A stretch of 64,000 nucleotides of DNA, taken from assembly GCA_002269645.1 (NCBI GenBank), contig NIVC01000176.1:1-64000 (forward strand), given 5' to 3'. Each line of letters opens with the position of its first letter. The stretch's first letter is position 1. The notes under the pieces are model-generated. The model ran no database searches, was not told the DNA's origin, and saw nothing but the letters and a program-made list of their open reading frames with translations. A program made the translations under genes and the position numbers. Source of the stretch: Macrostomum lignano. Taxonomy: Eukaryota. Of the stretch, positions 1-17,101 are shown one piece after another.

Positions 1-1
1 A

Positions 2-1152
2 ATTGATTGGACTGCTTACTATCATGACAAAAGCTATAGAGATGCTGAAAAGACGTCTTCAACTCCAGAGGAAGCCCTAGCAAAGAAGCATTATTGCTGA
101 TGAAAAAATGATAGCTGATTTAGATGCTATTCCAACCAGCGACTTGTCGGTAAAGGAGAGACTCATTAGAAATCTAGTAAAGCGTATTATCAATGCTAAA
201 GTTCGGTTTGGATTAGGAATTCATACTCACAACCCCAACAATTGTATAGACTGTCTAACAATTTATGGTAAGGGTCTTAGCTATGAAGATGCAGTAAAAT
301 TGCATAGGGAATACAGAAAGCCAAGAGTATTTAGAAAAATGATTCACTATGCAAAAGACACAATTTGGCATGCAGATATCATTATCCTACCGCCCGAAAG
401 AGGTTACAAATATGCTCTCACTATCATAGATGGTTTTACACGTTACGCCTGGGCAGTTCCTTTGAAAACAAAGACGGGAGCGGAAGTTGCAGAAGCTTTC
501 CAAAAAGTATTTAAGGAATCAGGAAGACGATCAGAGAGACTTTGTGTAGATGAAGGCAAGGAGTTTTATAATCAGCATATGTACAAGCTATACTCGTTTT
601 CAAAAGACAACATTAGAAAGAAGGATGAAAGGGGTGAATATATTAACAAGATGTTTCAATTTATGGCGAGTCAAGAATGCAATGATTGAGAGGTTCAATC
701 GTACTCTCACAAATAAACTCTGGTTTGAATTTGATCTACAGGGTAATCAGAAGTGGCTCCACACATTGCCAGCTATTGTTGAAAAATACAACAACACAAT
801 CCATTCTGAGATTCTGATAACTCCTTCAGAAGCATCTAAACATCCTGAGCGAGTACCAAAGCCAACTTTCGAGTATTCAAATGAGAAACCAAACTTCAAA
901 GTAGGTGACAAAGTTCATATCTATAGATATAAGGAGCACTTTGAAAAGGGTCGAAGAGGATATTGGAAAATTTCAGAAGTGTTTAGGATAAAGAAAATAG
1001 TTTACTCCAATCCCATAACCTACATTATTGAGGATGAGAATGGAGAAGAAATCATTGGATCATTTTACAAATCCCAGCTTCTACCAGCAAATTTTTCAAC
1101 TAAAAATGAGCGCCTATCGAACAAACTGCAAACGGGCGAAAGGTCAGATTGA
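2..1152 (+). CDS. PLA2-like domain in frame with retroviral-type (rve) integrase; 5'-partial, frameshifted near 91 and 650-675
   Basis: Frame from nt 2 reads IDWTAYYHDKSY (HDxxY PLA2 motif); after a 1-nt shift near 91 it continues ADEKM...NAKVRFGLG. Integrase triad follows: WHADII (D), CVDEGKEF (D), MIERFNRTL (E), then the Maverick-type tail PITYIIEDENGEEIIGSFYKSQL. Joins track ORFs 108..689 and 550..1152. Confidence 0.88.
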
Positions 1153-1528
1153 AACGTCTGATTCACAACTACTAGCTGATAAAGAGGGTGAAGGAATTGG
1201 TGATATGATCAGTGGTGTCACAAACTTTTTATCAAATCATGGAAGTAAAATTGTGAGTGGAGCTGATGCAATAGGTAAAACAGCTACCACAGCGAAGAAC
1301 ATATTCGATGCGAAGAAATCATACAGTGACATGTCTAAAGCAGGTGAGGAACTGGAATATATTAAAAAGAAACGTAGAGATAAAGAAGCAAAGAAAAGAA
1401 TGGAAGAAGAGCAACAGATAGCTTCTCAATCAAATAAGGCTATTCAAGATATTGTTAAAAAGGCTCTAGGAACAGCAGAACAGTCTCAAGTGTCTTTGAG
1501 ACAAGGCAATGGTTTGAAGAAATTCTGA
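1106..1528 (+). CDS. Small putative virion core/membrane-lytic protein (amphipathic helix after GEG site)
   Basis: ATG at 1106 in the TAAAAATG context shared by neighbouring genes. KEGEG is followed by IGDMISGVTNFLSNHGSKIV, a charged coiled coil and RQGNG. Confidence 0.7.
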   Translation: MSAYRTNCKRAKGQIETSDSQLLADKEGEGIGDMISGVTNFLSNHGSKIVSGADAIGKTATTAKNIFDAKKSYSDMSKAGEELEYIKKKRRDKEAKKRMEEEQQIASQSNKAIQDIVKKALGTAEQSQVSLRQGNGLKKF

Positions 1529-1536
1529 CCTTAAAA

Positions 1537-1965
1537 ATGAGCGAGAAAAACACTGAAGCAAGACTCAATCGATATGTTCGAGAGGGAAAACCAAGATATG
1601 TTACTGTAAATAAGCAAAAGCAATATCTTTCTAAAGAGAAGATTCGAGAATTGCAAGAGAAACAGAAAGAACATGAAGGTGGAATAATTCCTCTATTAGG
1701 CTTACTACCAGCAATATTGGGTGGTATCGGAGCAGCCTCCGGAGTTGGTACAATGATTGCAAAAAGTGTTAATACAGCCAACAATGCTAAGCATAATAAG
1801 ACAATAGAAAGCATTGAACGACAAAAACTAGAAGAGTTGAAAAAGGCTCAAGGGAGTGGAGTGTTAGTTGATGCGGCTAAAAGAGTCGAACAAGTACCCA
1901 GCGAAGCAGTCAAGTGGCTGCTAAAGACTTTAAAGTTGAAAAGGAGAAACAGGGTAATGGGATAA
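1537..1965 (+). CDS. Basic core protein precursor with adenovirus pX(mu)-like hydrophobic segment
   Basis: 142 aa, TAAAAATG start, basic N-terminus, then GGIIPLLGLLPAILGGIGAASGVG and AQGSG. Confidence 0.72.
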   Translation: MSEKNTEARLNRYVREGKPRYVTVNKQKQYLSKEKIRELQEKQKEHEGGIIPLLGLLPAILGGIGAASGVGTMIAKSVNTANNAKHNKTIESIERQKLEELKKAQGSGVLVDAAKRVEQVPSEAVKWLLKTLKLKRRNRVMG

Positions 1966-2008
1966 TTCTTAGACCTCACGAAGCTTAGTTGAAATTTCTC
2001 GTATAAAA

Positions 2009-3370
2009 ATGGAGAACAAAAAGGATATACTGAACCTATATGAGGACAAAACTTTTAGCTTTTTCAAAAAGAAAGAAGACTATATTAAGATTTCTCCAAC
2101 ACCAGTAGCACTAATAATCTCAATGTTGCAGGAGGTCAAATAGTTCATGAAGTCAATTCAACAGAGTCATACATTCTCATGTCAGAGGCATTCGGTTGTA
2201 TAAAATACTCAATAACACAACGAGATAACACCGACTTGAATACGAACATTACTCTAGAACATAATTGGCCTATGAGACTTTTCTCTCAACTCATAGTTGA
2301 CATTGGAGGAACAAAGAAAGTCTATAATGATCCTGGAGAGTATGACACAATCTTAAAGTCCGTAATGTACTCAAAATTGATGAATGAAGTTGGAGAAGCA
2401 TACGGATGGATTCCAGACACTGGAGATGCTGGGACTGTTTCTGATATAGCTCTAGCAAACAACGCAGATGCTGAAGCTGTGAGAACTGCAGCAATCGCTA
2501 TGAAAAATAGACTCAATAAGAAGGATTCGAATACTGGATACATTAGGAGGCTTGAAAATTATAACAATGTCACTAATGCTCCAAACAGAGGTGGAACAAT
2601 CAAACTATCATTAACACCCCTCATTGGGTTCCTTGATTGGCAGAAGATTAGCAAAGGAATTAAATATAAATTCACATGGACAAGAAAGACTAACGATGCT
2701 GAAATTTTCTTTGGAGCTGCCGGGACGGAAGCTAAGTTAACTATTAATAGCTTTGAGATTTGGATCCCTGCTATTACTTTGTCACCCAGTGCTGAAGCAG
2801 CTTTTCTAAAATCACTCAACAAGGACATTACAGTATCATTTCCAGAGAGGGTAACGGTTCCGCCACAACTCATTCAAGGAAGTCCATATACATGGAACAT
2901 AGCCAACATCTCCAATATGCCACTTGCAATCTTTGTAGCTTTCAAATATGACGTAAACAACCCATCATATATAGTTAATGATCACAAGTATGTGTCTTAC
3001 AAAACTGGAGCAAATGCAGTGAAAATAACCCAGCTTCAAGTCAGATTAAATCAGGTGATGTATCCGAATGATTATGTTGAAATTGATCCAGTAGCTCAAG
3101 ACATTCACAGAGCATATGAAATGTACGGACATCTGCAGCCGTTTCGGTGTAACTCCACCATTTAATAAACAAGACTTTCTAACCATCTATCCAATCTTTT
3201 GCTTTGATCTAACAGCTCAGGATGAGTTTCTTGTCAAGAGTGGAGTGAATATTCAATTATTTATCAAGAAGTCAACTAATGTTGAGCTGACTGCTTTTGC
3301 ACTAATTCTTGAACAAACAAAGAATGTAATAAAAGTTACCAGTGAATATCAAATGACCCGCGTCGAATAA
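2009..3370 (+). CDS. Major capsid protein (double jelly-roll, Polinton type); two frameshifts near 2105 and 3126
   Basis: Starts at TAAAAATG (2009, MENKKDILNLYED). One added G gives ISPTPGSTNNLNVAGGQ, joining ORF 2179..3165; a second shift joins 3116..3370 with the Polinton MCP C-terminal motif YPIFCFDL. Reconstructed length about 450 aa; lies next to the ATPase. Confidence 0.85.
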
Positions 3371-3391
3371 GGTCATTTTTTCTTTTTTTAA

Positions 3392-4165
3392 ATGCCCAAA
3401 GTAAAATTTCAGCATGATCCTATTTTCCCTAATCCTCTTTTATGTTGTATTATCGGCGCTACAAATACGGGTAAAACATATTTACTATTCCATATTCTTA
3501 CAAGTCCTGAAAAACTAGTTGACTTTAATGAGTTAGTTTTATATGTTCCCAGAGCATCTCAAATGGATCCAGAGTATCAGTTTCTAAAATATGGCTTTGA
3601 AAATGGTCTCCCACCTTCTCTTATCAACTCACTCTATCATGTCTACCAGGTGAGTGAGGATGCATCTCCTGAAGATATTAGACATATTTGTCGAGAGGCA
3701 GCCAACCCTGGTCGAGTGCAAAGCACATCAGAAAATTCAGAAGTAATAGAGAAAATTCCTGTCACTCTTTCCCATACTCCAAATGAAGAAATTTTTCATA
3801 ATGGACTAAAGACATGTGTGATATTGGACGATGTTTTGGGAGAGGCTAATCAAACATTTCAGGAAAGTCTGTTTCAGAGAGGCAGGCATGGAAACTGTTG
3901 TGGTTTTTATCTAGCTCAAAATTTTACCAAACTAGATCGCAATACTGTCAGGGAGAATACGACATGTTACATAATCTTTAAACAAAAAGATACAAACTTA
4001 AATCACATTGCTAGAAATATAGAAACGAATTATGAACCCGCTATATTCAAGGCTAAATGTAGAGAGGCTTGGAAAAAGAAGTATGGCTATATCTATATAA
4101 ATACAAGAGCTGATGAGGATGAGCAAGATTTGTATAAGGATGTTCTAACTAAAATCCCATTGTAA
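3392..4165 (+). CDS. A32-like genome packaging ATPase
   Basis: Walker A GATNTGKT, Walker B CVILDD, and RGRHGN...AQNF...RNTVREN typical of the FtsK/A32 family; intact 257 aa. Confidence 0.93.
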   Translation: MPKVKFQHDPIFPNPLLCCIIGATNTGKTYLLFHILTSPEKLVDFNELVLYVPRASQMDPEYQFLKYGFENGLPPSLINSLYHVYQVSEDASPEDIRHICREAANPGRVQSTSENSEVIEKIPVTLSHTPNEEIFHNGLKTCVILDDVLGEANQTFQESLFQRGRHGNCCGFYLAQNFTKLDRNTVRENTTCYIIFKQKDTNLNHIARNIETNYEPAIFKAKCREAWKKKYGYIYINTRADEDEQDLYKDVLTKIPL

Positions 4166-4167
4166 AA

Positions 4168-4899
4168 ATGACTAATGAATATATAAGAGAACTCATTAAT
4201 TTAGCAAAGCAGCGAGAAATGTACAAATCCAGAAATGATGCTCAACGCTATTTGAAAATTGGAGAAGAGAGTTTATATGCAAGAGTGGCTCCATTAGCTC
4301 AAAAACCTGTCACAGAAAAGCTCGATGAATTTATTGATGTCAATGCCAACCTTGTTGATAAACTTCAGAATCAAAAAGTTCCAGTTCCGCAATCAAGTAC
4401 ACCAAAAGGCCGATTTGAACCCCTAGAAGTATTTGACAAAATAATTGAAGAAATTGGAAAGATTCCAATAACTCAAAGACCAGCGCCTAGTATACGGATT
4501 CAAAAAACTGATGCTGGATATATATTTGGATCATCTGTAATAGATGTTGAATTCCATGAACAAGGTCGAGACATCATTGTCAACGAATTTCGAATGCCAT
4601 TTTCTGAAGATCTTGAAGAGTTGTTCAAAATGCCTAAAGTAACTGAAAATGGTGAAGAGCTGAAGCAATTCAAGATGCAAACATTGCAGGATTATGTTAA
4701 CATCATTGAACATTGTAAAAATCCAGCGGCCAAATCAAGTGGGAATTATAAGCAAGCAGTAAGGATATTGAAAGATAATCCACCAGGATATCGAGTAAAA
4801 CCGGGATCTGGACTCAGTGAAAGAGTGTTAACTTTATTAGCCGCCAAGGCAGAAGGACATAATAATGTTGATAAAGAGCTAGCAGAATTACTTGCTTAA
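4168..4899 (+). CDS. Conserved Polinton-type hypothetical (putative core) protein
   Basis: 243 aa, TAAAAATG start. N-terminal helix with QKPVTEKL; C-terminal GSGLSERVLTLLAAKAEGHN resembles the RLxLLxAxxxAGN helix I recall from Maverick ORFs. Confidence 0.65.
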   Translation: MTNEYIRELINLAKQREMYKSRNDAQRYLKIGEESLYARVAPLAQKPVTEKLDEFIDVNANLVDKLQNQKVPVPQSSTPKGRFEPLEVFDKIIEEIGKIPITQRPAPSIRIQKTDAGYIFGSSVIDVEFHEQGRDIIVNEFRMPFSEDLEELFKMPKVTENGEELKQFKMQTLQDYVNIIEHCKNPAAKSSGNYKQAVRILKDNPPGYRVKPGSGLSERVLTLLAAKAEGHNNVDKELAELLA

Positions 4900-4901
4900 A
4901 A

Positions 4902-5697
4902 ATGGAAAAAGAAATAGAAAAAGTCAACATCCTCTTGAGTAAAAAGTTTCAACGCACATTTGACTTCTTTTCAATTAAAAACCCATTTCGACAAACTCTA
5001 GGCACTCCTATAAATTTGTATGAAGATCGAGAATACGAAGCTGGTATAAAAAAGTTTGCAGTCTTTGATGCTATTAACAATATTGAAGGAGGCAATAATG
5101 AGTTGCGATACTCGAGGGATAGTGGTAGAACATGGAAAAAAATAAAGATTCAAGCGGGATCTTGGGAAGTTAAAAGTCTGTCAAGCGAGATTCAAAGATT
5201 GCTAACAGCTGCAAATGATTGGAAAGAGGGGGCTATTGTTTTCAGTGCAAGCCTAGACACGCGTAGAGTTGAGTTACGGTTAGCCACAGATTATCAAGTT
5301 GATTTCAGGGATGCACATTCCAATAACTTTAGAAGACTGTTGGGATTCAATTCGGAAGTGTATTTGAAACCATTTGAGAGAGCTCCAAATCCAGCTCGGA
5401 TAGACGGAGCTAGAAGTGCGATCATGGTTCGTTGTCTAAATATCAAAGGGGGTTTATCACTGATCCAGCTAATGGAAATCATTTAATTGATAAGCAAATA
5501 CTTCTTTCAATTCCATCGTTCTCTGTCCCAATGGGAAGTAAAATTATTCAAGAGCCGCAAATCCTGTGTACCTACCACTAACTACAAACATGTTGAGCAC
5601 ATTCGACTTTGTCATCGAAGATGAGTCTGGTGTTCTATACGACTTTGATGGCGAGGAAATATTTATAAATCTCACATACGACAAATATGAGTGTTAA
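4902..5697 (+). CDS. Minor capsid (penton, single jelly-roll) protein; frameshifts near 5452 and 5560
   Basis: ORF 4902..5486 (IKIQAGSWEV, RRLLGFN, AIMVRC). Two +1 corrections continue it as GGFITD...EPQNPVYLPL...IEDESGVLYDFDGEEIFINL to TAA at 5695-5697, matching the Polinton minor capsid C-terminus. Confidence 0.82.
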
Positions 5698-5699
5698 AA

Positions 5700-6131
5700 A
5701 TGAGCGAAGCTGAGACATGGAATGCATTTAAACAAAAGTTTGGGACTGACACTACGACTAATATTGATCTGATAAATTGGGCAAAATATCTCAAGTTAAA
5801 ACCATTTCGCTATGCCATGAGAGATGAAATTGTTGATTTACCACAGTATGGTTACTTTATGACAAATATTCACACTTCGAAAGAACGGGGTATACATCAT
5901 TCAGCTATATTTTCAGCTCCTGATAAGGTTTATTTTTTTGATTCCTATGCACTACCGCCCACACTGGAAATTATGGAAAAGTTTAATCACACAAAGAATA
6001 GAATATGTGGAGACATGGAAGAACAAATTCAAACTTTTGATAAGAAATATTGTGGTCAAATGTCGCTGTACTTTTTACACCGAATCGATAAAGGAGATAG
6101 CTATAACGAAATTTTGCAGCAATTAAAATGA
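5700..6131 (+). CDS. Adenain-like (Ulp1 fold) cysteine maturation protease
   Basis: Catalytic His (RGIHHSA), Asp (YFFDSYALPP) and Gln/Cys (QIQTFDKKYCGQMSLYFL) in the expected order. The ATG at 5700 (TAAAAATG) is preferred over the GTG at 5691. Confidence 0.92.
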   Translation: MSEAETWNAFKQKFGTDTTTNIDLINWAKYLKLKPFRYAMRDEIVDLPQYGYFMTNIHTSKERGIHHSAIFSAPDKVYFFDSYALPPTLEIMEKFNHTKNRICGDMEEQIQTFDKKYCGQMSLYFLHRIDKGDSYNEILQQLK

Positions 6132-7535
6132 GTTACAAGAATACTGCCAATCAATTTGGTTACTCGTCAAATTCAAATGATATAGCACCTGGAATAACAA
6201 TAGCGTTAGCTGATGATCGCTACATCAATGAAAATGAAGGATATAAGAGAGAGGAAATAGATAATTTATTGTTAGCAAAGAGAAATGTTTCAGACTCTTA
6301 TTCAAAGGAAGATAGTGACGCAATGAATATCACCATGCTACAATTAATTGACGATGCTCATGGGCGCGTAAACAATGTCTACACAAAAACCGAAACTGAC
6401 ACTAAGATGTATTCTAAAACTGAGATTGACACTAAGATGTATTCTAAAACTGAGATTGACACTAAGATGTATTCTAAAACTGAGATTGACACTTTGTTAG
6501 CAGAATGGCAAGGTACTGCGGGAGGTACAGAGAGTTCGAAATTAGTCAATATTCTTTCATTACTGACTTCAAACGCTTCCCATTCTGACATGAAAGTGAC
6601 CGCTTCTCATAACTCTTCAGCAGCATATCATGTTGCAGATTCAAACCCAGCTTCAGATTGGAGCAGTGCAGATGACTCAGACAAGTGGATACGATTTCAA
6701 TTTTTGAAAAGAGCTAGGAAAGTTGTAGAGATAAAGTTGGAAGGAGAGGTGTGGCCTGGTTGGTCTGTTAGTGTGAGCCTAAATGGAACAAACTGGACAC
6801 CTGTTGAACAAAGTGCACCCATTGAACTACGAAGGGCAATGCACATCTTAGGAAAAAAATACCCAATCCCTCATATTATTTCCATTATTTCTTAATTTTT
6901 CTGGTTCCGTAAAGCTTACAAAAGTTGAATTACTTGAGAGACAAACAGTGGTTAATGATTTAGTGTGGCCTATAGATAGACTTCAAGCTGTACCAAAGCT
7001 ATACGTAGACAATGCACTTGAATCAGTGGAGCTGCGACTAAGGCGGGGACTAGGTTTCAAATCTTATACAGGATATATTCCCTCACTAGCAACACGTCAA
7101 AACTATAGAGAAAGGGGTTTCAATGTAGCGTCATCAGGAGCATTTGAAACGTCAGATAATTGGGGTTATATAGTATCTAATTCAGAATGGGCATCGAGGA
7201 ATGAACCCAATTCTTACATTGAAGTACAACTTCCCGAGTCTATTCAAATTTGGAAATTCGGATTGAAAGGAACCAAAGCAGTAGGTAGTGAAATTATAAA
7301 AAATCAACCAAAAAGTTTTATTCTGAAAGGGAGCAATAACAAGAGAGACTTTAGGAATATTTTTTCTACCGAAAACGCTGGTTTAGTTCCTGGAGTCATG
7401 AAATATTTTGAAGTAGCTTCCACCGAAAAATTCTCTGTTTATAGAGTGCATATTAATTCAGCCACTGAAGGATCAACCGTTCTTATTGTTTCAGGCTTTC
7501 AACTTTATCCGATTTTAGACATAATCGCCACATAA
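6128..7535 (+). CDS. Putative fibre/receptor-binding protein with YSKTEID repeats and two discoidin (F5/8 type C)-like domains; frameshifted at 6825-6895
   Basis: Contains 10-aa repeats MYSKTEIDTK, discoidin-like motifs (SDWSS...WIRFQF...WSVSVSLNGTNWT; EWAS...YIEVQLPE...PKSFILKGSNN...FSVYRVHI) and a KLYVD fibre motif. Two +1 corrections join ORFs 6128..6895 and 6948..7535. Confidence 0.72.
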
Positions 7536-7537
7536 AA

Positions 7538-8278
7538 ATGAATGAAAAAAATGAACACATCTATCCTGTGGTTGAGCTGCATGAAGCAGATTTGAGGGAG
7601 CGGGACTATTTCAATCAGAGAAAGGGTGAAATCAAAGGCAGTATTGAATGCATTACTAAAGATCTTACAATTTATAGCAAAAAGGTAAAAAAGTACAAAC
7701 GGCAAAGTAGCAGGATAAATTGGATCAACATTGTGACAGGAAATGTAAGTCTCTTGGCTGCTACAGGAATTGGCATAGCAACATCGATACTGACATTGAA
7801 TCCCTTAGTTATTGGAGTAGTAATCGGGGCAATGAGTGGTTTTGAAGCTGTAAAATCCACGTCGTTGTTTGCAACTGTGAAAATTCATTGCCAAAAGCAG
7901 AAGGCAAAATACATTGTTCTCAGAGATCTGGCAAATCAATATAGAGAGAGATTGTATATTTACTCCCAAAAAGCAGTTGATGATTATAGATTAACTCTTG
8001 AAGAGGTTCAAGCAGCTGCTGCAATTTATTCAGAATACAGAGAAAAAAGAGATCAATTGTTAGACGCCTGTGTTGCGCCTGAAGAAGTTAACCATTCGGA
8101 AGTCGTTGATAAAATCCTCAAAGAGAGTAGACTTGGTCATTCAGCGAAGGAAAAAATTAAAAAGGAATTACTAGAAAAAGATCTGAGAGAAAAATTGGGT
8201 CTAGCTGATAAGCCAAAAGAGTACTCGGCAACACTCAATCTTCAATCAAATGCTCCAAGTGCACCTCCCTACAATTAA
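7538..8278 (+). CDS. Viral protein with hydrophobic helical hairpin and C-terminal PSAP motif
   Basis: 246 aa, TAAAAATG start; about 50-aa hydrophobic Gly/Ala-rich stretch between coiled coils; ends APSAPPYN. Confidence 0.75.
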   Translation: MNEKNEHIYPVVELHEADLRERDYFNQRKGEIKGSIECITKDLTIYSKKVKKYKRQSSRINWINIVTGNVSLLAATGIGIATSILTLNPLVIGVVIGAMSGFEAVKSTSLFATVKIHCQKQKAKYIVLRDLANQYRERLYIYSQKAVDDYRLTLEEVQAAAAIYSEYREKRDQLLDACVAPEEVNHSEVVDKILKESRLGHSAKEKIKKELLEKDLREKLGLADKPKEYSATLNLQSNAPSAPPYN

Positions 8279-8303
8279 TATTGTATAATTTTTTTTCTAG
8301 AAA

Positions 8304-8609
8304 ATGGCTGCAATAAAAGTTCTCCTAAATGCATACCAAGATGAAATAAAGCGCATTGATAGAGAAATACAAATAAATAACTTTAGGGAGGTGCGTACAC
8401 ATTGTGGAATAATAGAACCGGATTATGGATATATTGATAAATTAAGTGATCGCAAATGTTTTCTTGAAACTGCTATTGTTTTTGCAGAAGCATTTATTGA
8501 AGATGAAATCGACAAGTTAGTTAAAAAAATAAAAGAGATCAGGAAGTATGTTGAGTTTAATGATCAGCGCAAGAAACTTCTTAAGCAATTGAATTGTTTG
8601 GTTTTTTAA
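8304..8609 (+). CDS. Small helical hypothetical viral protein
   Basis: 101-aa ORF with AAAATG start, converging tail-to-tail with PolB (2-nt gap). Confidence 0.55.
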   Translation: MAAIKVLLNAYQDEIKRIDREIQINNFREVRTHCGIIEPDYGYIDKLSDRKCFLETAIVFAEAFIEDEIDKLVKKIKEIRKYVEFNDQRKKLLKQLNCLVF

Positions 8610-8611
8610 AC

Positions 8612-11600
8612 TTATTTGAATCCATGAGGATGTGTTATAATTCCATTGGATTCAATGTATCTTTTGTCATCGAAAGGACTAATAGCCTTCTTATTTTGTT
8701 CTATTAAAGTCATGTTATGCTTGTCTGATCTAAGGCTATACACTTTCCTATAGACTGGTTCGTTATAATCAAGTAGTATATTTCTATAGTCATCATATTG
8801 TACATGATGCTTCACTGTTGACTTTGAGATTCCCTTTAATTTTTTCTCTTCCTTCCCTTCCTTTTGAGTGCTGACATAAACTGTTTTAAATGAATATGCT
8901 TTCGATCTTAGAGCGGTTACTTCTGTCATTATGCAATCATATTTTGCCAATTCATCCTTGAATGTTCCCAGCTTTCCACAATTATTCATATCATGTAAAT
9001 CAATCGGAAAATTTTTAGTATACAGCGACAAATCGAAATGCTCCTTCATCTGAGCAATGTCTTTATAAATATTTTCTGTCTTTATATGAAGAATGAATGA
9101 GTCGGTGTCAGAGGTAACAATCTCAACATTATCCCCCCATTTGGACTTGAAAACTTTGTAAAATGTTTCATACATATGCAATTTCGAGAGATCCAGAATT
9201 GCTTGTCCAGCGTATGTTGGCTTTGTTCCAAGAGGGATATTCTTAGGTCGCTGGTGAATGCAAATTAGATTTTCATTGAAGATTTTGAAGTCTATGAAAT
9301 CTGGCTTGGATATTATCTTAGATATCTCATCCTCACTTGTCAGCAACTCAAATCGCTTTCTCTTTTTAACATCCTCCATTGTCTTGCCAAAGATGCTTAC
9401 ATTAAGCATTTTGAACTGATTGTCTTCGAACTCAATTTTTGCTTCTTTTGCCTTCTTTCTTTCTATCGTATTAAACTCGATATACTCCTTTAACCATGGC
9501 TTTTCATTGAATGAAATCGTCCTATGTACTTTTGTCACTTTCAAGCCCATCTCTTCATAGAATCGCAATAGCTTATGATGTACGATATATTTTGTTTTAT
9601 TTTTTAAATTAAGGATCAATTTAGGAACTTTTCCAATCTTTTTCATTTCGACTTCTAGACATCCTTTCTGATATTCACTCAATTCACTTTCTGACACAGT
9701 TGTACTTTCAGGTGCTAATGGGAAGGCATACGTTTTCTTTTTTGATTCTTTTGTATATTCAAGATCACATTCAACAAGACAGCCCCGTCCTTCAGGAGGA
9801 TTTTTATAATAGTTGGAATCAGCTTCCCATTTAAAGTCAGAAAAAGGAAGGGGTTCCAACATACTATAACCATAGAGATTTGTACAATCAACGTAAAGTA
9901 AGTAGGAAGTTGGTTTTTCTAAATCATAGCCTGGAAGATAAGGATTATTTGCCTTTACATATCGTGACCCTAGAACTCCGCTAAATCCACCTCTTATTCC
10001 ACTATCAATCATATGAATCATATCGATATCCGCCAGCAAGTCTAACTCAACTTTACTTTTCTTCAACCCAGCATTCCAACTCAATCCTGGTGCTGAGAAG
10101 CATCTGGCTGGATCAATCTCAAAGTGTTTCAGGAAGAATGTTCTATAGCGTTCGAATACATCTGCTAATAATAGAACGTCAACCTTAAGATACAGCATCA
10201 TATAATCCTCCAAATTCTTACAATTAAAAGTTTTCCACATTTGTTTTGCAAAATCATATTCATCTGAAGAAATGTCTTCACCTTTCAACCTCGAGTAAAA
10301 CTCTTTCAATGGTGGTAACTCAGTTTCTGCTAATCTTCCAAAGCTTCTGATATACTCATATGGGAATACACCCTTGCGCTTAACATATTGAAAATCGCTG
10401 TCGTTTTTAAAGTATTTCTTTGTTATGATGAAGTCTTCATCCTTCAGGGACTTTGCGCAGATATCCAGCGAGGAAGCCAAGAACCTGTATGAATCTAGGA
10501 ACCTCAGTACTACTTTGTTACATCCAAACTCGAGAGAAATGTACTCTTCAGAAGTTTTAGATAGTGGAGGAAATAATTTATCCTCCATGGTCTCTTTGCT
10601 CTTTAAGTGTGTCACTAAGAAGTGAAAGTCATAGTGGGATCCATTCTGGAAGTAGATTGGGATTACTCGCTTCTTACTCTCGAGAGCATTGCAGGATTTA
10701 CAGGCAGCCCCTCTATATTTGCCACTATAGTGACAATGTTCTCTTACCTTACCTAGCTTAAGTGTAAAGTCATTTTTACAATTCGCACATTTTTCAGCCC
10801 TGTAAAACTCTTTCCATTGTTGCTTTGTGATCTTATATTTACTTATATTATTGCTCTTGTTCAGACATTTTTTGCACCAAGATTCTATAGTAACTTTACT
10901 GTCAATTTCCTTCACATGCACCTTCATATCTGGAACCATATCAAACTCCTCGCATATGTAGCATTGTTTAGCCTTACAGTAAGAAGCCTCCTCTTGCGCT
11001 GTCAAATTATGATTAATATGCTTAGGCTCCTTCAGACCATTCTTAATTTGTTGATAAATTTCAACCATTCTATCAACATATTTTTCCTTGGCATCTGTGC
11101 CACAATATCCTTCATACTTCGATTTAATTACCTCGGGTAACTCAGAATGGATATAAAAACCGTAAGCTATTGCGTTCTGATTTGCTACTTTTAGAGTATA
11201 TGACTCTTTGTCTAAAATCTTAGTGAAGCTTTTACTTTGTGCTTCAATGGGTTCAGTTGTTGCTTCAAAGTCAGCATAGATAGCGATGGGTAGCTTTAGT
11301 TTGAATATATGATTCTTAAATTTCAGCTTCGATTCTTCCTTAGGTAATTTATAAAGACCGGGTGCATTTTTACCGCACAACCTTGAGTGCTCGGCCAACA
11401 CGTTTTCACTTGTGTAAACAGTCATGCATGTTCTGCATAAAAATGACTTGTGATTTACACGCTTTCCAGTTTGTTTTGAAACTAATGTTGTAAGATTTTT
11501 TATCAGACAATAATGAGTCTTACCATCTTCCTCCAGGTATAGTAAATCTACTACATAAGTTCGTTGATTATGAGGTGAGACATAGAGATGTTGTAGTGTA

Positions 11601-12436
11601 TCTGGGAATTTACCTTCATAATACAGCACATTAACAGCAAACTCTTCATTTAGTCTTTCAAACTTTTTTATATCTTTTATTCTCATGGGGAATTGGATAT
11701 CGGTGAGATTAAGTTCTTTTTCATATGGTTTATATTTTGACACTCGATAACCATCTTTATTTTGTGGATGTTTAACAGCTAATACACACCAGAGGAAGCA
11801 TTTCTCATCATCATTCTGAATGTTAAGAATTGATCGACATTTTTTAATTTCATTGTTAGTAAAGAAGGATCCTCCCTGAATGCTAGAAACCTTGGCAACT
11901 CTGATGTAGATAGATTTTATCTGCACAAAGACATTATCTGATCCCTTCTCACAGAACTCATCAATGAACTTTTCCAATGTCTCCTGTCTTTCGCTAAGGG
12001 CAGTGTCATACTGTGAATCTGACTGAATATTGTAGAATCCACTTTCATTGTCATAGACTGTGAATGGAGGAATGTCTTCGTTAAAATTCTTTTTGAATTC
12101 TAGTTCAAAATGCAAGTTGAACTTACTCCGTCCACCATCTCTAACTTTCTCTAACACTGCTTTAATTGCATCTTCATACTGAATAAAAACCTTTGTTATA
12201 TAACCTTCATTAACATTCCTAATGACATACTCTGAAATTTCTGACTTCTTATTATACTTCTCTCTAAAGGATTTATGTAGTATTATTTCATCACCAATCT
12301 GCGGAGCTGCCACTTCATCTTCTTTGGACTCCGCTATAGGCTCATTATCTGTGTGCTTTTGCTGCTGACGCCGAAACCGCTCAGCTTGAATGTATTGTTC
12401 AAATTCTTCATCACTCATCTTTCTGAGTTGTTCCAT
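8612..12436 (-). CDS. pPolB: Protein-primed family B DNA polymerase with N-terminal terminal-protein/vOTU region
   Basis: Intact 1274 aa. ExoI IYADFE, ExoII FQNGSHYDFHFL, ExoIII YLKVDVLLLADVF; polymerase motifs YVDCTNLYG, KMLNVSIFGK, TSDTDSF; endonuclease VII-like Zn insert (EHCHYSGKYRGAACKSCN). Confidence 0.97.
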   Translation of the reverse strand: MEQLRKMSDEEFEQYIQAERFRRQQQKHTDNEPIAESKEDEVAAPQIGDEIILHKSFREKYNKKSEISEYVIRNVNEGYITKVFIQYEDAIKAVLEKVRDGGRSKFNLHFELEFKKNFNEDIPPFTVYDNESGFYNIQSDSQYDTALSERQETLEKFIDEFCEKGSDNVFVQIKSIYIRVAKVSSIQGGSFFTNNEIKKCRSILNIQNDDEKCFLWCVLAVKHPQNKDGYRVSKYKPYEKELNLTDIQFPMRIKDIKKFERLNEEFAVNVLYYEGKFPDTLQHLYVSPHNQRTYVVDLLYLEEDGKTHYCLIKNLTTLVSKQTGKRVNHKSFLCRTCMTVYTSENVLAEHSRLCGKNAPGLYKLPKEESKLKFKNHIFKLKLPIAIYADFEATTEPIEAQSKSFTKILDKESYTLKVANQNAIAYGFYIHSELPEVIKSKYEGYCGTDAKEKYVDRMVEIYQQIKNGLKEPKHINHNLTAQEEASYCKAKQCYICEEFDMVPDMKVHVKEIDSKVTIESWCKKCLNKSNNISKYKITKQQWKEFYRAEKCANCKNDFTLKLGKVREHCHYSGKYRGAACKSCNALESKKRVIPIYFQNGSHYDFHFLVTHLKSKETMEDKLFPPLSKTSEEYISLEFGCNKVVLRFLDSYRFLASSLDICAKSLKDEDFIITKKYFKNDSDFQYVKRKGVFPYEYIRSFGRLAETELPPLKEFYSRLKGEDISSDEYDFAKQMWKTFNCKNLEDYMMLYLKVDVLLLADVFERYRTFFLKHFEIDPARCFSAPGLSWNAGLKKSKVELDLLADIDMIHMIDSGIRGGFSGVLGSRYVKANNPYLPGYDLEKPTSYLLYVDCTNLYGYSMLEPLPFSDFKWEADSNYYKNPPEGRGCLVECDLEYTKESKKKTYAFPLAPESTTVSESELSEYQKGCLEVEMKKIGKVPKLILNLKNKTKYIVHHKLLRFYEEMGLKVTKVHRTISFNEKPWLKEYIEFNTIERKKAKEAKIEFEDNQFKMLNVSIFGKTMEDVKKRKRFELLTSEDEISKIISKPDFIDFKIFNENLICIHQRPKNIPLGTKPTYAGQAILDLSKLHMYETFYKVFKSKWGDNVEIVTSDTDSFILHIKTENIYKDIAQMKEHFDLSLYTKNFPIDLHDMNNCGKLGTFKDELAKYDCIMTEVTALRSKAYSFKTVYVSTQKEGKEEKKLKGISKSTVKHHVQYDDYRNILLDYNEPVYRKVYSLRSDKHNMTLIEQNKKAISPFDDKRYIESNGIITHPHGFK

Positions 12437-12545
12437 TTTTTATAAAATAAATTTAGCAGGAAAATTATGTAATGACGTTATAAATTTATTGTGGCATCCA
12501 CAGGATTAAGCAATTAGAAATGTATAAGCGATATTACAATAGGCA

Positions 12546-12771
12546 GAAAAAGAACCAGATACTGCAGTATTCGATGTGAAAAAGCAACGAGCAAAAAAGA
12601 ACCAGATACTGCAGTATTCGATGTGAAAAAGCAACGAGCAAAAAAGAACCAGATACTGCAGTATTCGATGTGAAAAAGCAACGAGCAAAAAAGAACCAGA
12701 TACTGCAGTATTCGATGTGAAAAAGCAACGAGCAAAAAAGAACCAGATACTGCAGTATTCGATGTGAAAAA
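12546..12771. repeat. Five near-perfect 47-bp tandem repeats, each with a 12-bp palindrome ATACTGCAGTAT
   Basis: Palindromes start at 12559, 12606, 12653, 12700 and 12747; the array lies just upstream of the PolB start. Confidence 0.95.
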
Positions 12772-12832
12772 GAATAGTCAGCATAATGAGAGTCAGATGT
12801 TATGATTCACAACGCGCGCAATAAGATTTTCA

Positions 12833-13468
12833 TCAGATCAGAAGTGCATCTTCCTCCTCTTCCTCCAGCATCTCCAGGGCTTTCTCAGCGTACTTGATTA
12901 TAGAACGTAGGCGAAACAGTGAGATGCCACAACGCCACAGAATTGGATGTGCTGTGCTTAGACGAGCCACTCGGACTAAATAGTTCCCCCACGCGGACTT
13001 AAAGCGTAGTCTAGACAAAAATACTTTATACTCCTCGTCACTCAATGAAAGCTTCATTCTTATTAATATCTGACCAGACTTAATTCCATACTGCAAGCCC
13101 CGGCACTGTAGCTCGTTTATCATTTTATCAATGGAATTAAGTTCTGTAATTGCATCCTGAAATTGATACTCTCCGTCCATAAATTCATTAATCTCTCCCG
13201 GCTCTTGATGCTCCATCGAATCCCGCAGTATTTTAGCAGCTTCTGCTATTCGTTCCTTTGTCTTGTCCACTCTCTCCAATCTACCTCGAAAAGTTGGAAT
13301 AGCAAACTTCTTCCTATTAAATTTTCTAGCAACCTTGTTATATTCTCCTATCCATTTCTTACAATGCTTTAAATCCCCACTACAAAAAATCTCCTTGATA
13401 AGACTATCGAGGTCGGATTCGAATGATGCCATTGCTGCCTCCATACGGGATTCTAAAATGTAGGGCAT
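12833..13468 (-). CDS. Viral hypothetical protein, possible DUF3102-like helical DNA-binding domain
   Basis: 211 aa with viral base composition; segment GQILIRMKLSLSDEEYKVFLSRLRFKSAWGNYLVRVARL; acidic tail. Confidence 0.6.
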   Translation of the reverse strand: MPYILESRMEAAMASFESDLDSLIKEIFCSGDLKHCKKWIGEYNKVARKFNRKKFAIPTFRGRLERVDKTKERIAEAAKILRDSMEHQEPGEINEFMDGEYQFQDAITELNSIDKMINELQCRGLQYGIKSGQILIRMKLSLSDEEYKVFLSRLRFKSAWGNYLVRVARLSTAHPILWRCGISLFRLRSIIKYAEKALEMLEEEEEDALLI

Positions 13469-14181
13469 TATAACTATTTAGTATCAAAATCAACACAAGA
13501 ACAAAACTCTTATTTCTTACCTTTTCGTTGTTGCTGAGTTGTGTGATTTATATGTTCACTCTGTTTGCTTTAGTCTGTCTGATAAACGTGTGTTGTATTG
13601 CTTCCAAAACTAAAGCGGGTTTTTATCAAGCCACCTAAGCGACTTCTTACATGCGCACTGAGTCATGAAAATAGAAAAAAAACCAGCATGGCCGCTGCTT
13701 TAGAGTTATGGTTTATGAGGTGCTCAATTCCTGCTGCAGCATGCTGATATTCGAAACCTATTGATAAAGGAACAATAAATTCATGTTGACTCAACTGCTA
13801 AACTGTTAGGGTTAGGTAAGTTGCTTTGCTTCATTCTTGATGCGAAAAGCTAGAAAGAATGTTGAGTCATTCTGCTTTAAAGAAAAAAGGAACATAGTTT
13901 CTTTCAGTGTGCATTGTGCAGTGCGATGCCATGCATCTCAAGTAACTACAATTCTGACTCATGTGGATAGAATTTTTTCTGCATCTGGCATGAGCCTGCA
14001 AAGTTGCATTCCATTCACCCGGTGTCGCTTTCTCATTGGTTGTCATCAATGAGACACCAATGAGAATTGAGGTTATGCGCTGCTTTTGTATTTTCACATA
14101 ATATTAATACAGGAATGAATTTGGAAAGATGGCTGATAATTCTCTCCAAATTCATTGCAACAATAAAAAGCTTTAATAGAC

Positions 14182-14745
14182 ATGCCATCCCAAAAGGAAC
14201 TTCGCAAGAGATATAGGGATCATCGAAAGGAATTCGAACTCACAAAGCAAAAGATTCGAAGGCTCATGCCATTAACTATATTTGCAGATCTAGGTTCTGA
14301 GAGACTAATCAATAAGCTACAAGGTTTAGATACATTCAAGTCCTTTACGGAGGAGGATAAGCTCCTGAAGCTTCTGAAGGAAAATGTGGCAAAAAGAAAA
14401 AGCATGCAAGCTATTGCACTATCCTATCAAAACCAAGCTCAAGCCATGCAAGCGATTGGTGATTTGGATACTGAAGATGATAGCCTTCCACCACCCTATG
14501 AGATCGCTGCTGACAACCGAGGCACTGCTGACATCCAAGGCACTGCTGACATCCAAGGCGCTGCTGACAACCGAGGCACTGCTGACATCCAAGGCGCTGC
14601 TGACAACCGAGGCACTGCTGACATCCAAGGCACTGCTGACAACCGAGGCACTGCTGACATCCAAGGCACTGCTGACAACCGAGGCACTGCTGACATCCAA
14701 GGCACTGCTGACAACCGAGGCACTGCTGCTTCATCAGCTAACTAA
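14182..14745 (+). CDS. Viral hypothetical protein with PPPY motif and 6-aa repeat tail
   Basis: 187 aa; coiled-coil N-terminus, LPPPYE, then about 12 in-frame 18-bp units encoding AD(NR/IQ)G(T/A) at 14506-14725. Confidence 0.62.
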   Translation: MPSQKELRKRYRDHRKEFELTKQKIRRLMPLTIFADLGSERLINKLQGLDTFKSFTEEDKLLKLLKENVAKRKSMQAIALSYQNQAQAMQAIGDLDTEDDSLPPPYEIAADNRGTADIQGTADIQGAADNRGTADIQGAADNRGTADIQGTADNRGTADIQGTADNRGTADIQGTADNRGTAASSAN

Positions 14746-15060
14746 AACTAGATGATTGATGACTTGTGGCGATCATGGACTAATTTGTCAATATTAATAA
14801 ATTGCTCTAATGTTTTAATTTTGTTCTTCATAGGCGTTTGAGGACTTTTTGTTACTGTTTTAATAATCACTACTTTAATATTTAAAATACAAAACCATTA
14901 TTATTATTTGCATAAGTTATGCGAAGTGTATCCTAAAAACGGATTTTAAGGAGCTGTTATCTTTTTTAATTTTTTATAATTAATTTTCATTATAGCAATT
15001 TTGATTTACGTGAATTAGATTTAACTTTGTGTAATGGAAGCTGTCCTTGACCAATTTTTA

Positions 15061-15829
15061 GAGTTCCTGCGAGAGCCTATTTGACCATACGCTTCACTCA
15101 GTGTGGGTTTCGCACGACGTTAAAGCTGAGTCACAATATAAAAATTGCTTTGAGGAGAATTTCTCCTGCTATTTGTTCCATTTTTAAGATACATAATTTA
15201 GAAAAGGGTTAGTGAAATCGTCCGTAGGTAGGGTCGCGAGAGCATTGTTCGTTTGTAACTTGCGTGGCCCACTTCATGTCTTTTTTTACAGCTAGATAGA
15301 GGGTGAACACAAAAGATTTGCACGAGCCACTCCTATTGGATGCCAAAACCAAACACTTTTTGGCAGAAATTTTGGCAAAAATTTTGGTTTTGGCAGAAAT
15401 TTTGGCAGCCAATAGAAATGTTCAGTGCTGCGGTTATGTATAGTTAGTTTGGTGAGTTCCTGCGAGAGCCTATTTGACCATACGCTTCACTCAGTGTGGG
15501 TTTCGCACGACGTTAAAGCTGAGTCACAATATAAAAATTGCTTTGAGGAGAATTTCTCCTGCTATTTGTTCCATTTTTAAGATACATAATTTAGAAAAGG
15601 GTTAGTGAAATCGTCCGTAGGTAGGGTCGCGAGAGCATTGTTCGTTTGTAACTTGCGTGGCCCACTTCATGTCTTTTTTTACAGCTAGATAGAGGGTGAA
15701 CACAAAAGATTTGCACGAGCCACTCCTATTGGATGCCAAAACCAAACACTTTTTGGCAGAAATTTTGGCAAAAATTTTGGTTTTGGCAGAAATTTTGGCA
15801 GCCAATAGAAATGTTGAGTGCTGCGGTTA
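15061..15829. repeat. Two near-identical direct repeats of about 376 bp (period 393 bp)
   Basis: Copies at 15061-15436 and 15454-15829; the identical spurious ORFs 15209..15412 and 15602..15805 confirm the 393-bp offset. Confidence 0.93.
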
Positions 15830-16348
15830 GTGCTCTAGTAGTCGAGTATGCATGCCACGAAAAATTTAAATTAGCGCTCCATGTTCTTGAATGTCTTCTA
15901 TTATCTTTAAGTACAAATCTAGAACAGCATTAAAGCCATTTCAAAGCCTCGGGACAAAGCGAATGTGCAGGAGCAAATTATTGACTTTTGTAAAAGCATT
16001 GTATGCCTCGAGTGGACAATTTTTATGCATAGATGGTAGCTGACTGATCGTTAAAAGCAAAGCTAGTAAGATTGGCTTATTGAAGGGCGTTATGCAATGG
16101 GAGAAAAGACTATTATTAAATTTGATGCTAGTTTTGAAATGATGAAACCTGAAAATAGGTTATTTTAACCCACGAATCAAAAATTTCTTGTGGTTTTACT
16201 CACGAAATCGCGCAAAAAGCAATTTTTCGAAACTTTTGAAAAATCACTAAAATCACTGTTTTCAGACAATTTTCACCTGTTTTTAGTCGATTTTTATCTG
16301 TTTTTTGTGATTTTTCAAAATGGGTTGCGCTCAAACCTACTTTTCCTA

Positions 16349-16570
16349 TACTACTTCCCACAAATATCCCAAAATGCCATTGAAATCCCACAAATATCCC
16401 AAAATCCCATTAAAATCCCACAAATATCCCAAAATGCCATTGAAATCCCACAAATATCCCAAAATCCCATTAAAATCCCACAAATATCCCAAAATGCCAT
16501 TGAAATCCCACAAATATCCCAAAATGCCATTGAAATCCCGCAAATATCCCAAATTGCCATTGAAATCCTA
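16349..16570. repeat. 30-bp intronic minisatellite
   Basis: About 7 copies of cacaaatatcccaaaatgccattgaaatcc. Confidence 0.9.
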
Positions 16571-16588
16571 CAAAAAAAACTGACTCAC

Positions 16589-17101
16589 CAAGTTGACAAT
16601 CATATCCCACTGGCCGCCATCTTCAGCCGGATTGTGCAGCAGATGCTGCCACAGCCGGCCCTCGAGCGGCTCGCCCCGCATAGCGCAATCCAGATAGCAG
16701 TGCAGGAAGTAGTAGCCCCTCTCCAGCTTGTCCCAGAAGAACAGGTGACTCTGCGACAGCTCCAGCTCGGCCAGTCCCAGCTGCTTGGCCAGCGGGATTC
16801 GAACCAGATTCAAAGCGGCGAACAGCCAGCAGCGCCCGCTGCGCTTCTGATCGGTGACCGGCTTGATTTCGGCGGCGCTGTAGGCGAAGGCGCTGGTGCT
16901 GCTGAGCTGGTCAACCAGCCGACGGTCCAGAGCTACGTCGAACAGCTTATGCCGCTGGGTGGCCAGCTCGGACAGTTGCAGCTGACCGCTGGCCGAGAAT
17001 TGCGACTCCAGCTGGGCCAGCAGGTGGTTGGGAATGCCGGAGCATGATGGAGCGGCGTTTGACGACATGCTGTTGATTAGACTGTTGCTAGGGCAGCTCA
17101 T
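16589..17101 (-). CDS. BLMH: Bleomycin hydrolase (peptidase C1B), first coding exon
   Basis: VTDQKRSGRCWLFAALN (catalytic Cys), LSQSHLFFWDKLER, EDGGQWDMIVNL; donor TTG|GTGAGT at 16588. No downstream exon recognised in the window. Confidence 0.92.

Follow-up and report, generated by a model that had tools for sequence, protein, structure and literature searches.

A young Polinton family of Macrostomum lignano and a second family with other ends and another polymerase share one integrase-capsid block

We analysed the first 64,000 nucleotides of contig NIVC01000176.1 (C176) of Macrostomum lignano, a stretch referred to below as the window. The contig belongs to a 764-Mb genome assembly (GCA_002269645.1) and begins within a mobile element, which is one integrated copy of a young Polinton that we named family A. 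A preliminary description of the window had proposed a young, near-complete Polinton with capsid genes. This was supported by terminal inverted repeats (TIRs), 6-bp target-site duplications at 10 sites, a mean distance of 0.40% between A copies and a ratio of non-synonymous to synonymous polymorphism (pN/pS) of 0.14. What it missed is the main point, namely that window positions 1-8307 are common to a second family, B. It is almost certain that A and B share one integrase-capsid block on different ends and polymerases.

The right end of the element was located at 16355, where the sequence reads ...ACTACT. The boundary proposed earlier (15829) merely closes a 393-bp duplication inside the right TIR, which spans 15061-16355 and consists of this duplication and a 902-bp core (15454-16355). 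The left end is provided by the end of contig C25, which overlaps window positions 1-11124 at 99.7% identity (8 substitutions, 18 gaps). The leftward extension that had been suggested for finding TIRs and a 6-bp duplication thus recovered both. The duplication TCCCAC (16356-16361) abuts the two element ends in C25 and C176 within the same 30-bp host minisatellite, of which it forms the opening bases (16356-16574). The left repeat of this insertion in C25 also contains the 393-bp duplication, which was present in no other fetched copy. A natural full-length copy of family A measures 17,395 bp and has arms of 902 bp (AGTAGT...ACTACT) that are 100% identical. To the right of the minisatellite lies an exon of a host bleomycin hydrolase gene on the minus strand (16590-17101; PDB match to residues 21-177, E 5e-42), and residues 305-398 of the same protein are encoded beyond the left end in C25 (E 3e-19), so that the element has inserted into an intron. 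The remainder of the window (17224-64000) is host DNA rich in minisatellites with periods of 4-64 bp and with large swings in GC content.

Of 32 A-type ends, 26 (one with only three flank bases) could be assigned to 10 sites at which they pair as 6-bp duplications. A-type ends paired with A ends only and none with a B end. Several end pairs were split over different contigs, which indicates that flanks of near-identical copies were wrongly paired in the assembly. The idea that the 30-bp minisatellite is a preferred target was rejected, as the flanks of the ten A sites are unrelated. One host minisatellite family has received both an A and a B copy (C1449:273824 and C2696:48420).

The left half of the element in the window is an integrase and morphogenesis module (1-8307, plus strand) that is also found in family B at about 98.5% identity. 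It starts with the 3' part of a gene in which a phospholipase A2 (PLA2) domain is fused to the integrase (1-1152). The integrase domain rve (PF00665) was matched both in the window (E 1.5e-10) and in the open reading frame (ORF) of a sister copy (E 7e-10). As the window starts within the PLA2 domain, its presence was confirmed on the natural ORF of the sister copy (Phospholip_A2_4, E 1e-8). The window copy carries frameshifts near 0.1 and 0.65 kb; a 452-aa ORF is open in 4 of 10 copies checked. The next two genes encode small proteins: ORF139 (1109-1528; 139 aa, amphipathic helix with a hydrophobic moment of 0.43), which is open in 19 of 20 copies and has no credible Pfam match, and the basic ORF150 (1537-1989; 150 aa, Gly-rich hydrophobic stretch with hydropathy 1.96), which is open in 12 of 22 and frameshifted near 1.93 kb in the window. 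They are followed by the double-jelly-roll major capsid gene (2009-3370), which matches PF21738 (E 1.9e-13) in the ORF of a sister copy; it encodes 454 aa in sister copies and is open in 12 of 22, and the window copy has frameshifts near 2.1 and 3.1 kb. A single-sequence fold model of the major capsid protein (pLDDT 32) was discarded. An A32/FtsK-type packaging ATPase (3392-4165; PF04665, Pox_A32, E 6.9e-6, above its cut-off) is open, and so is a conserved 243-aa ORF (4168-4899; pN/pS 0.13) that has no Pfam match.

The product of 4902-5690 is likely to be the penton (minor capsid) protein, judging from its position in the module and an Atlas score of 0.98 to unnamed Preplasmiviricota clusters; it has no Pfam match, is frameshifted between 5.4 and 5.7 kb in the window and comprises 263 aa in sister copies. 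The open gene at 5700-6131 likely encodes an adenain-type cysteine protease. In an alignment of 16 rows His66 and Asp81 are invariant, followed by QIQ and CGQ motifs, so that the residues come in the order His-Asp-Gln-Cys; Peptidase_C5 was matched by 1 of the 16 members only, and weakly (E 0.085), and PDB searches with the protease profile gave no useful match. Relatives of the protease were found in viral contigs at 15 distant loci with 25-33% identity. A fibre-like gene (6128-7535) combines a stalk of 10-residue repeats (30-bp repeat at 6386-6493) with two discoidin (F5/8 type C, PF00754) matches (E 2e-6 and 6e-3). It is frameshifted near 6.85 kb in the window and encodes 469 aa in sister copies. 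The last gene of the module (7538-8278) encodes a hairpin membrane protein of 246 aa with a C-terminal PSAP motif, a candidate egress adaptor.

The right half lies outside the shared block. It comprises the A-specific ORF101 (8304-8609, plus strand; open in 11 of 14 copies), the open PolB gene of family A on the minus strand (8612-12436; 1274 aa) with an endonuclease VII zinc finger (PF02945, E 1e-7), a 47-bp tandem repeat of 4.8 copies upstream of PolB (12547-12772), the likewise A-specific ORF211 on the minus strand (12833-13468; open in 10 of 11 copies, no significant Pfam match) and ORF187 on the plus strand (14182-14745). ORF187 contains a PPPY motif and a tail of 18-bp repeats of variable length; it is open in 12 of 12 copies and encodes 140-188 aa between its signature motifs. 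The gene set and order of the preliminary description therefore hold, as do the open frames of PolB, ATPase and protease; its head-to-tail arrangement of all genes does not, because PolB and ORF211 lie on the minus strand. Most ORF starts between 1109 and 13468 have an A-rich (T)AAAAATG context, which often overlaps the preceding stop codon.

The six A-type ends not assigned to the ten sites belong to three odd inverted-end elements (C1638:176141-188744, C1157:303462-317100 and C3314:12807-26445), in which segments of 12.6-13.6 kb lie between inverted A-type ends (94-96%). These segments contain ORF187, a paralogue of ORF211 (34%) and other ORFs, without the capsid block or PolB, and are bordered on both sides by the same flank, inverted, in place of a target duplication. 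They are possibly nested in another inverted-repeat element. A 7.9-kb A copy with an internal deletion, intact ends and a 6-bp duplication (C1095:9713-17573) is likely non-autonomous, and another A copy (C3459:25501-49200) carries a 5-kb insertion, together with a 98-bp duplication in ORF101.

Near-identical sister copies, which the preliminary description had proposed to look for, are numerous. A search of the genome with the ATPase gave 41 matches from 40 scored of 48 candidates, most of them at 97-100% identity, and with PolB-A all 16 candidates matched over nearly the full length. The mean substitution distance among ten A copies was 0.40%. In the module the window copy has no private substitution and 9 private indel columns, and five of its genes (integrase, ORF150, major capsid, penton and fibre) are frameshifted. 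These frameshifts are likely assembly errors: contigs from four public sequencing runs carry indels of 1-2 bases relative to the window at the sites of the frame breaks. Single-base deletions occur about once per kb in young copies, most of the places (89 of 121) being private to one copy, and they are enriched in runs of at least 4 bases (21% versus a background of 8.5%). Frameshifts in individual copies may alternatively reflect decay after insertion. For every module gene, between 8 and 19 copies have an open frame. Comparison of A with B shows purifying selection on the module, with a pN/pS of 0.14 overall, 0.10 for major capsid and penton, 0.01-0.24 for most other module genes (0.01 for ORF150; ORF139 showed no synonymous change) and 0.40 for the ATPase. 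In two runs that we guessed to be RNA, coding and non-coding parts were covered alike, and these runs may hold DNA.

Many of the ATPase matches follow the window only up to 8307 and represent family B. Its members are 18.2-18.7 kb long and have arms of about 586 bp that start with AGTAGTAGT; 6-bp duplications were found at three sites in a partial sample. Family B encodes its own PolB, a primase-helicase of 833 aa (Prim-Pol, PriCT-2 and D5_N) and a restriction-endonuclease-like ORF. In natural copies the sole long DNA match between A and B covers 8,388 bp at 98.4%, starting within PLA2 and running through the hairpin gene to its end, and the two polymerases are only 44% identical in the core and 25% N-terminally. 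With PolB-B as the query (40 of 44 candidates scored), 24 matches over nearly the full length were obtained, at 96-100%. Of 11 B copies whose left junction was read, 10 have other sequence in place of the start of PLA2 and one retains that start. The junctions are no artefact of long reads, since short-read contigs break from the window into B junction sequences at 8271 (3 of 4 runs) and at 7535 (3 of 4 runs), and since the A ends pair solely with A ends.

As assembled, 8 of 14 typed B copies have the hairpin-PolB-helicase segment in inverted orientation. In inverted copies (C4094, C67 and others) the fibre gene and the inverted arm are separated by a segment of 1.8 kb that includes a 135-bp tandem repeat and is absent from the non-inverted reference copy. 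The terminal repeats of B have a second, inward-facing terminal motif within the first 100 bp, which gives a short inverted repeat at each end. Beside B copies on C716 (310001-340000) and C67 (near 346000) we found a third Polinton family, whose PolB is about 36% identical to those of A and B and which has a separate PLA2 gene. On C716 it lies on both sides of a B copy, in inverted orientation.

The divergence between A and B is not uniform along the shared block. In 600-bp windows 10 A copies were compared with 12 young B copies, three older B copies being excluded. Divergence started at 4.1% over the first 600 bp, fell to 0.3-1.4% in the middle and rose again to 2.3-3.5% at the right edge; 6 of the 14 windows contained pairs of A and B copies without any difference. 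When the older B copies were added (15 in all), the 10 A copies differed from B at 22 fixed positions, 15 of which lie within about 400 bp of the left edge, and 51 polymorphisms were shared. Four-gamete violations rose from 0.09 at distances below 50 bp to 0.45 above 3 kb. The excess of shared over fixed variants and the high divergence at the edges with low divergence in the centre suggest continuing recombination: a single transfer would give even divergence and no shared polymorphism, whereas recombination that is blocked by unrelated arms would give the profile seen. We therefore regard it as likely that A and B still exchange the inside of the block, rather than that the pattern arose from one transfer or an artefact. 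One A-type copy is nested in a B copy and has its own 6-bp duplication. In the older copy C12 (91-96%) the module and PolB-A are combined with the helicase, ORF113 and terminal repeat of B, and other older copies tie the module to PolB-B (C3646 and C538) and to an A-type end (C1376), so neither association of the module is brand new. Three contigs (C2167, C3908 and C1874) considered as hybrids with an A left and a B right half were rejected; they represent an A-type copy nested in B together with mispaired flanks.

Taken as a whole, the explanation that we consider quite probable is that the young family A shares an 8.4-kb block with family B and that the inside of this block is still exchanged by homologous recombination. 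The analysis itself shows how the element is built and where it ends, the 6-bp target duplications, the existence of two chassis, the profile of divergence and the action of purifying selection; the life cycle proposed for the element draws on the known biology of Polintons and adenoviruses. The element would be excised or copied as linear DNA, which its own protein-primed PolB would replicate from the termini. The ATPase would package the DNA into the jelly-roll capsid, the protease would mature the capsid and the integrase would reinsert the element. The discoidin fibre may bind to cells, PLA2 and the two small proteins may breach membranes, and the PSAP-containing hairpin protein may enlist ESCRT-I for exit. 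Copies of A and B would come together either during joint replication of their linear genomes or by insertion of one into the other, and would then recombine inside the block that they share. As the arms are unrelated, exchange would be prevented at the edges of the block, which would account for edges that differ by about 4% and a centre that is mixed.

Several points weigh against this explanation. Particles, free linear DNA and transcripts are predictions. The lineage may be virion-competent, as the preliminary description suggested, but all ten module genes are open in none of the 15 assembled copies that contain all ten, and a strict signature test found PolB-B open in 0 of 10. Flanks are mispaired between near-identical copies (for example in C2071, C3459, C67, C5112 and C3947), which makes the contigs chimeric in part; variants in the middle of the block could be blurred by polishing, and chimeras and polishing together could mimic part of the mosaic. 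As regards exit, the conservation of PSAP was assessed in four close homologues (64-69% identity) and the model of the hairpin protein is weak (pLDDT 62).

Whether particles are actually made we regard as an even question. The families might be self-synthesizing transposons that are confined to the cell, the capsid block being kept by recent ancestry or by an intracellular role, with no infectious particle. This would agree with virions and free ends being predictions, and the deleted copy on C1095 with its 6-bp duplication shows mobility without capsid genes in cis. The low pN/pS of capsid, penton and most other module genes argues against it, as does the retention of the whole block by both chassis. 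We think it a serious alternative although somewhat the less probable one, and it is compatible with the two-chassis finding.

The mosaic of the shared block might instead go back to one past transfer of the module followed by separate descent, with assembly chimeras and polishing producing the mixture. Flank mispairing was indeed proven in several contigs, and about one single-base deletion per kb in young copies implies imperfect consensus quality. However, among the fetched contigs that span the module none has an A arm on one side and a B arm on the other, in either direction, and minority alleles are found in some of the A copies as well as in some of the B copies. In the assembly-independent short-read contigs the left edge is resolved into separate haplotypes, whereas single contigs of 0.4-0.9 kb cross the centre, with a depth of 224-272 compared with 98 on PolB-A in run X4 (contig depth being a rough guide only). 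A single transfer thus appears improbable, and continuing exchange remains the preferred reading.

The preliminary description had placed the novelty of the element elsewhere, in an unusually rich and uncatalogued set of entry and egress genes. In its favour the closest relatives in the protein collection are only 61% (PolB), 64-69% (hairpin protein) and up to 80% (protease) identical, and the PSAP motif is conserved amid variable flanks. PLA2 and the discoidin fibre are present according to Pfam. ORF139 is a candidate membrane-active or core protein that may resemble cupiennin, and ORF150 a candidate core or lytic protein that may resemble pX. However, PLA2, cupiennin-like and gasdermin/pX-like genes are standard in animal Polintons according to the gene list in the accessible text of PMC8502044, the PLA2-integrase fusion was also present in 22 of the 150 best integrase relatives, and look-alike clusters of the hairpin protein occur in molluscs and in large DNA viruses. 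The claim was thus mostly not upheld, and an uncatalogued toolkit is unlikely to be where the novelty lies.

Both late-domain motifs named in the preliminary description exist, and only one stands out from chance. PPxY motifs are expected 0.32 times in the 4,427 aa encoded and were seen twice, and PPPY of ORF187 was rejected as a late domain. PSAP is expected 0.045 times in the same 4,427 aa. In the hairpin protein it is kept in all four full-length homologues (a fifth is truncated), where only 17 of the 243 four-residue windows are invariant. The protein was modelled as helix, hydrophobic loop and helix. A fold search with this weak model gave one match at E<=0.001, and weak matches to iridovirus proteins are a lead only. 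The same holds for orbivirus NS3, the nearest named Atlas cluster (0.76). Bluetongue virus NS3 binds Tsg101 through PSAP (PMC7409164, in the text available), and like the protein described here it is small, with a hydrophobic hairpin and a PSAP motif, and comes from a non-enveloped virus. Here PSAP is C-terminal and a canonical PPxY is lacking; no sequence homology is apparent and the binding is a prediction. None of 592 pattern matches for the context of hairpin homologues in metagenomes was confirmed, and we found no description of late domains in Polintons in the literature that we searched. The use of PSAP for exit is therefore put forward tentatively, and a role of the hairpin protein in ESCRT-mediated exit is a testable guess.

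That family B is a partly defective derivative which relies on A as a helper is very doubtful, since the replaced start of PLA2 in 10 of 11 B copies, which leaves the first part missing, and the interruption of PolB-B in 14 of 15 assembled copies (one has a stop-free stretch of 1,027 aa) are offset by gap columns that are mostly private (43 of 52), as in PolB-A (45 of 51), by B's own polymerase, primase-helicase and ends, and by more near-full-length PolB matches than in A (24 versus 16).

Polintons have TIRs that start with AG and end with CT, and they generate a 6-bp target-site duplication. Family A has such TIRs and duplications together with a Polinton-type PolB, an rve integrase, a double-jelly-roll capsid gene and an A32/FtsK ATPase. 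PolB-A has 3,927 homologues at E<=1e-20 (best 61%), some of which match PF03175; PolB-A itself does not match PF03175 at E<=0.1, and a PDB search gave no useful match. PolB-A thus diverges from the pfam03175 archetype, as polymerases of the Beta (group 1) class do, and is taken to be of this type. In a quick tree (69 rows of 121 core regions), which contains no named Beta reference and assigns no formal class, A and B fall into one supported clade yet apart from each other, and A adjoins a metagenomic protein of 62% identity. Two of the homologues (P0044 and P0047, about 1,500 aa each) contain intein and LAGLIDADG domains. The Cys (CFLW) and His (HYCLI) motifs of PolB, which have no match in Pfam or PDB, may mark the N-terminal OTU-like domain that belongs to the adintovirus definition. 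The label adintovirus-like, used in the preliminary description, holds for the Polinton features and the Beta-type PolB. The definition in the available text of PMC11071296 also asks for a hexon that BLASTp links reciprocally to the reference adintoviruses and for a C-terminal chromodomain of the integrase; Pfam detected no chromodomain at E<=0.1 on the 452-aa ORF, so we file the element as adintovirus-like only.

As far as the accessible text of PMC8502044 and PMC11071296 goes, the element resembles Polintons/Mavericks (Polintoviricetes) of group 1 with Beta-type PolB in its PolB, rve integrase, double-jelly-roll capsid and ATPase, its likely penton and likely adenain-type protease, its TIRs, 6-bp duplication and size (17-19 kb), and its PLA2 and small membrane-active candidates. 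In contrast to PLA2X of the Alpha virion modules (PMC8502044), PLA2 is joined here to the integrase and not to a pX-like domain. The same source describes, in the part available, an ancient mixing of virion and PolB modules between the Alpha and Beta classes; in M. lignano both polymerases belong to one clade and the shared block is about 98.5% identical. A closer parallel is the pPolB swap of Caenorhabditis briggsae (PMC10748475), where similar non-polymerase genes likewise stand beside distant polymerases in one host species. According to the available text the polymerase alone differs there (16% identity), whereas in M. lignano the difference extends to the terminal repeats and both arms, and B has a primase-helicase in addition. 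Jeong et al. state in that text that their own data could not track ongoing exchange.

A morphogenic module with changing replication modules is also the theme of the replicase turnover in Polisuviricotina (Barth, Ha and Aylward, bioRxiv 10.64898/2026.10.13.758929). In the part of the preprint available, the morphogenic genes of one metagenomic contig are identical at the nucleotide level while the replicases differ; the swap is suggested to proceed through tandem or nested integration, and the authors call the mechanism unclear. An end-module model is given in the available text of PMC11296320. Their evidence, to the same extent, consists of single contigs or deep phylogenetic patterns, whereas here dozens of integrated copies in one animal genome display target duplications, a nested insertion, an older hybrid and a gradient of divergence. 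No published description of family A was found; Repbase, Dfam, subscription journals and bioRxiv supplements lay outside the search and may hold the family.

Module swapping is thought to shape Polintons, virophages and their relatives, and so far it has been deduced from deep trees or single contigs. It is known in principle; here it can be traced over dozens of copies within one animal genome. Both partners are young and present in many copies in this genome, with breakpoints and a recombination gradient, which makes the rate and route of the exchange testable. A bolder view, which we consider unlikely, is that A and B form a live virus population of two replicons with unrelated ends and polymerases, one recombining gene pool and a single virion that leaves the cell through ESCRT by means of the PSAP hairpin protein. 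If true, this would represent replicase turnover in progress and the first exit mechanism for Polintons. Polinton particles have so far not been observed, according to the available text of PMC8097293, and the youth of the families and the selection on their capsid genes make M. lignano a good place to seek them.

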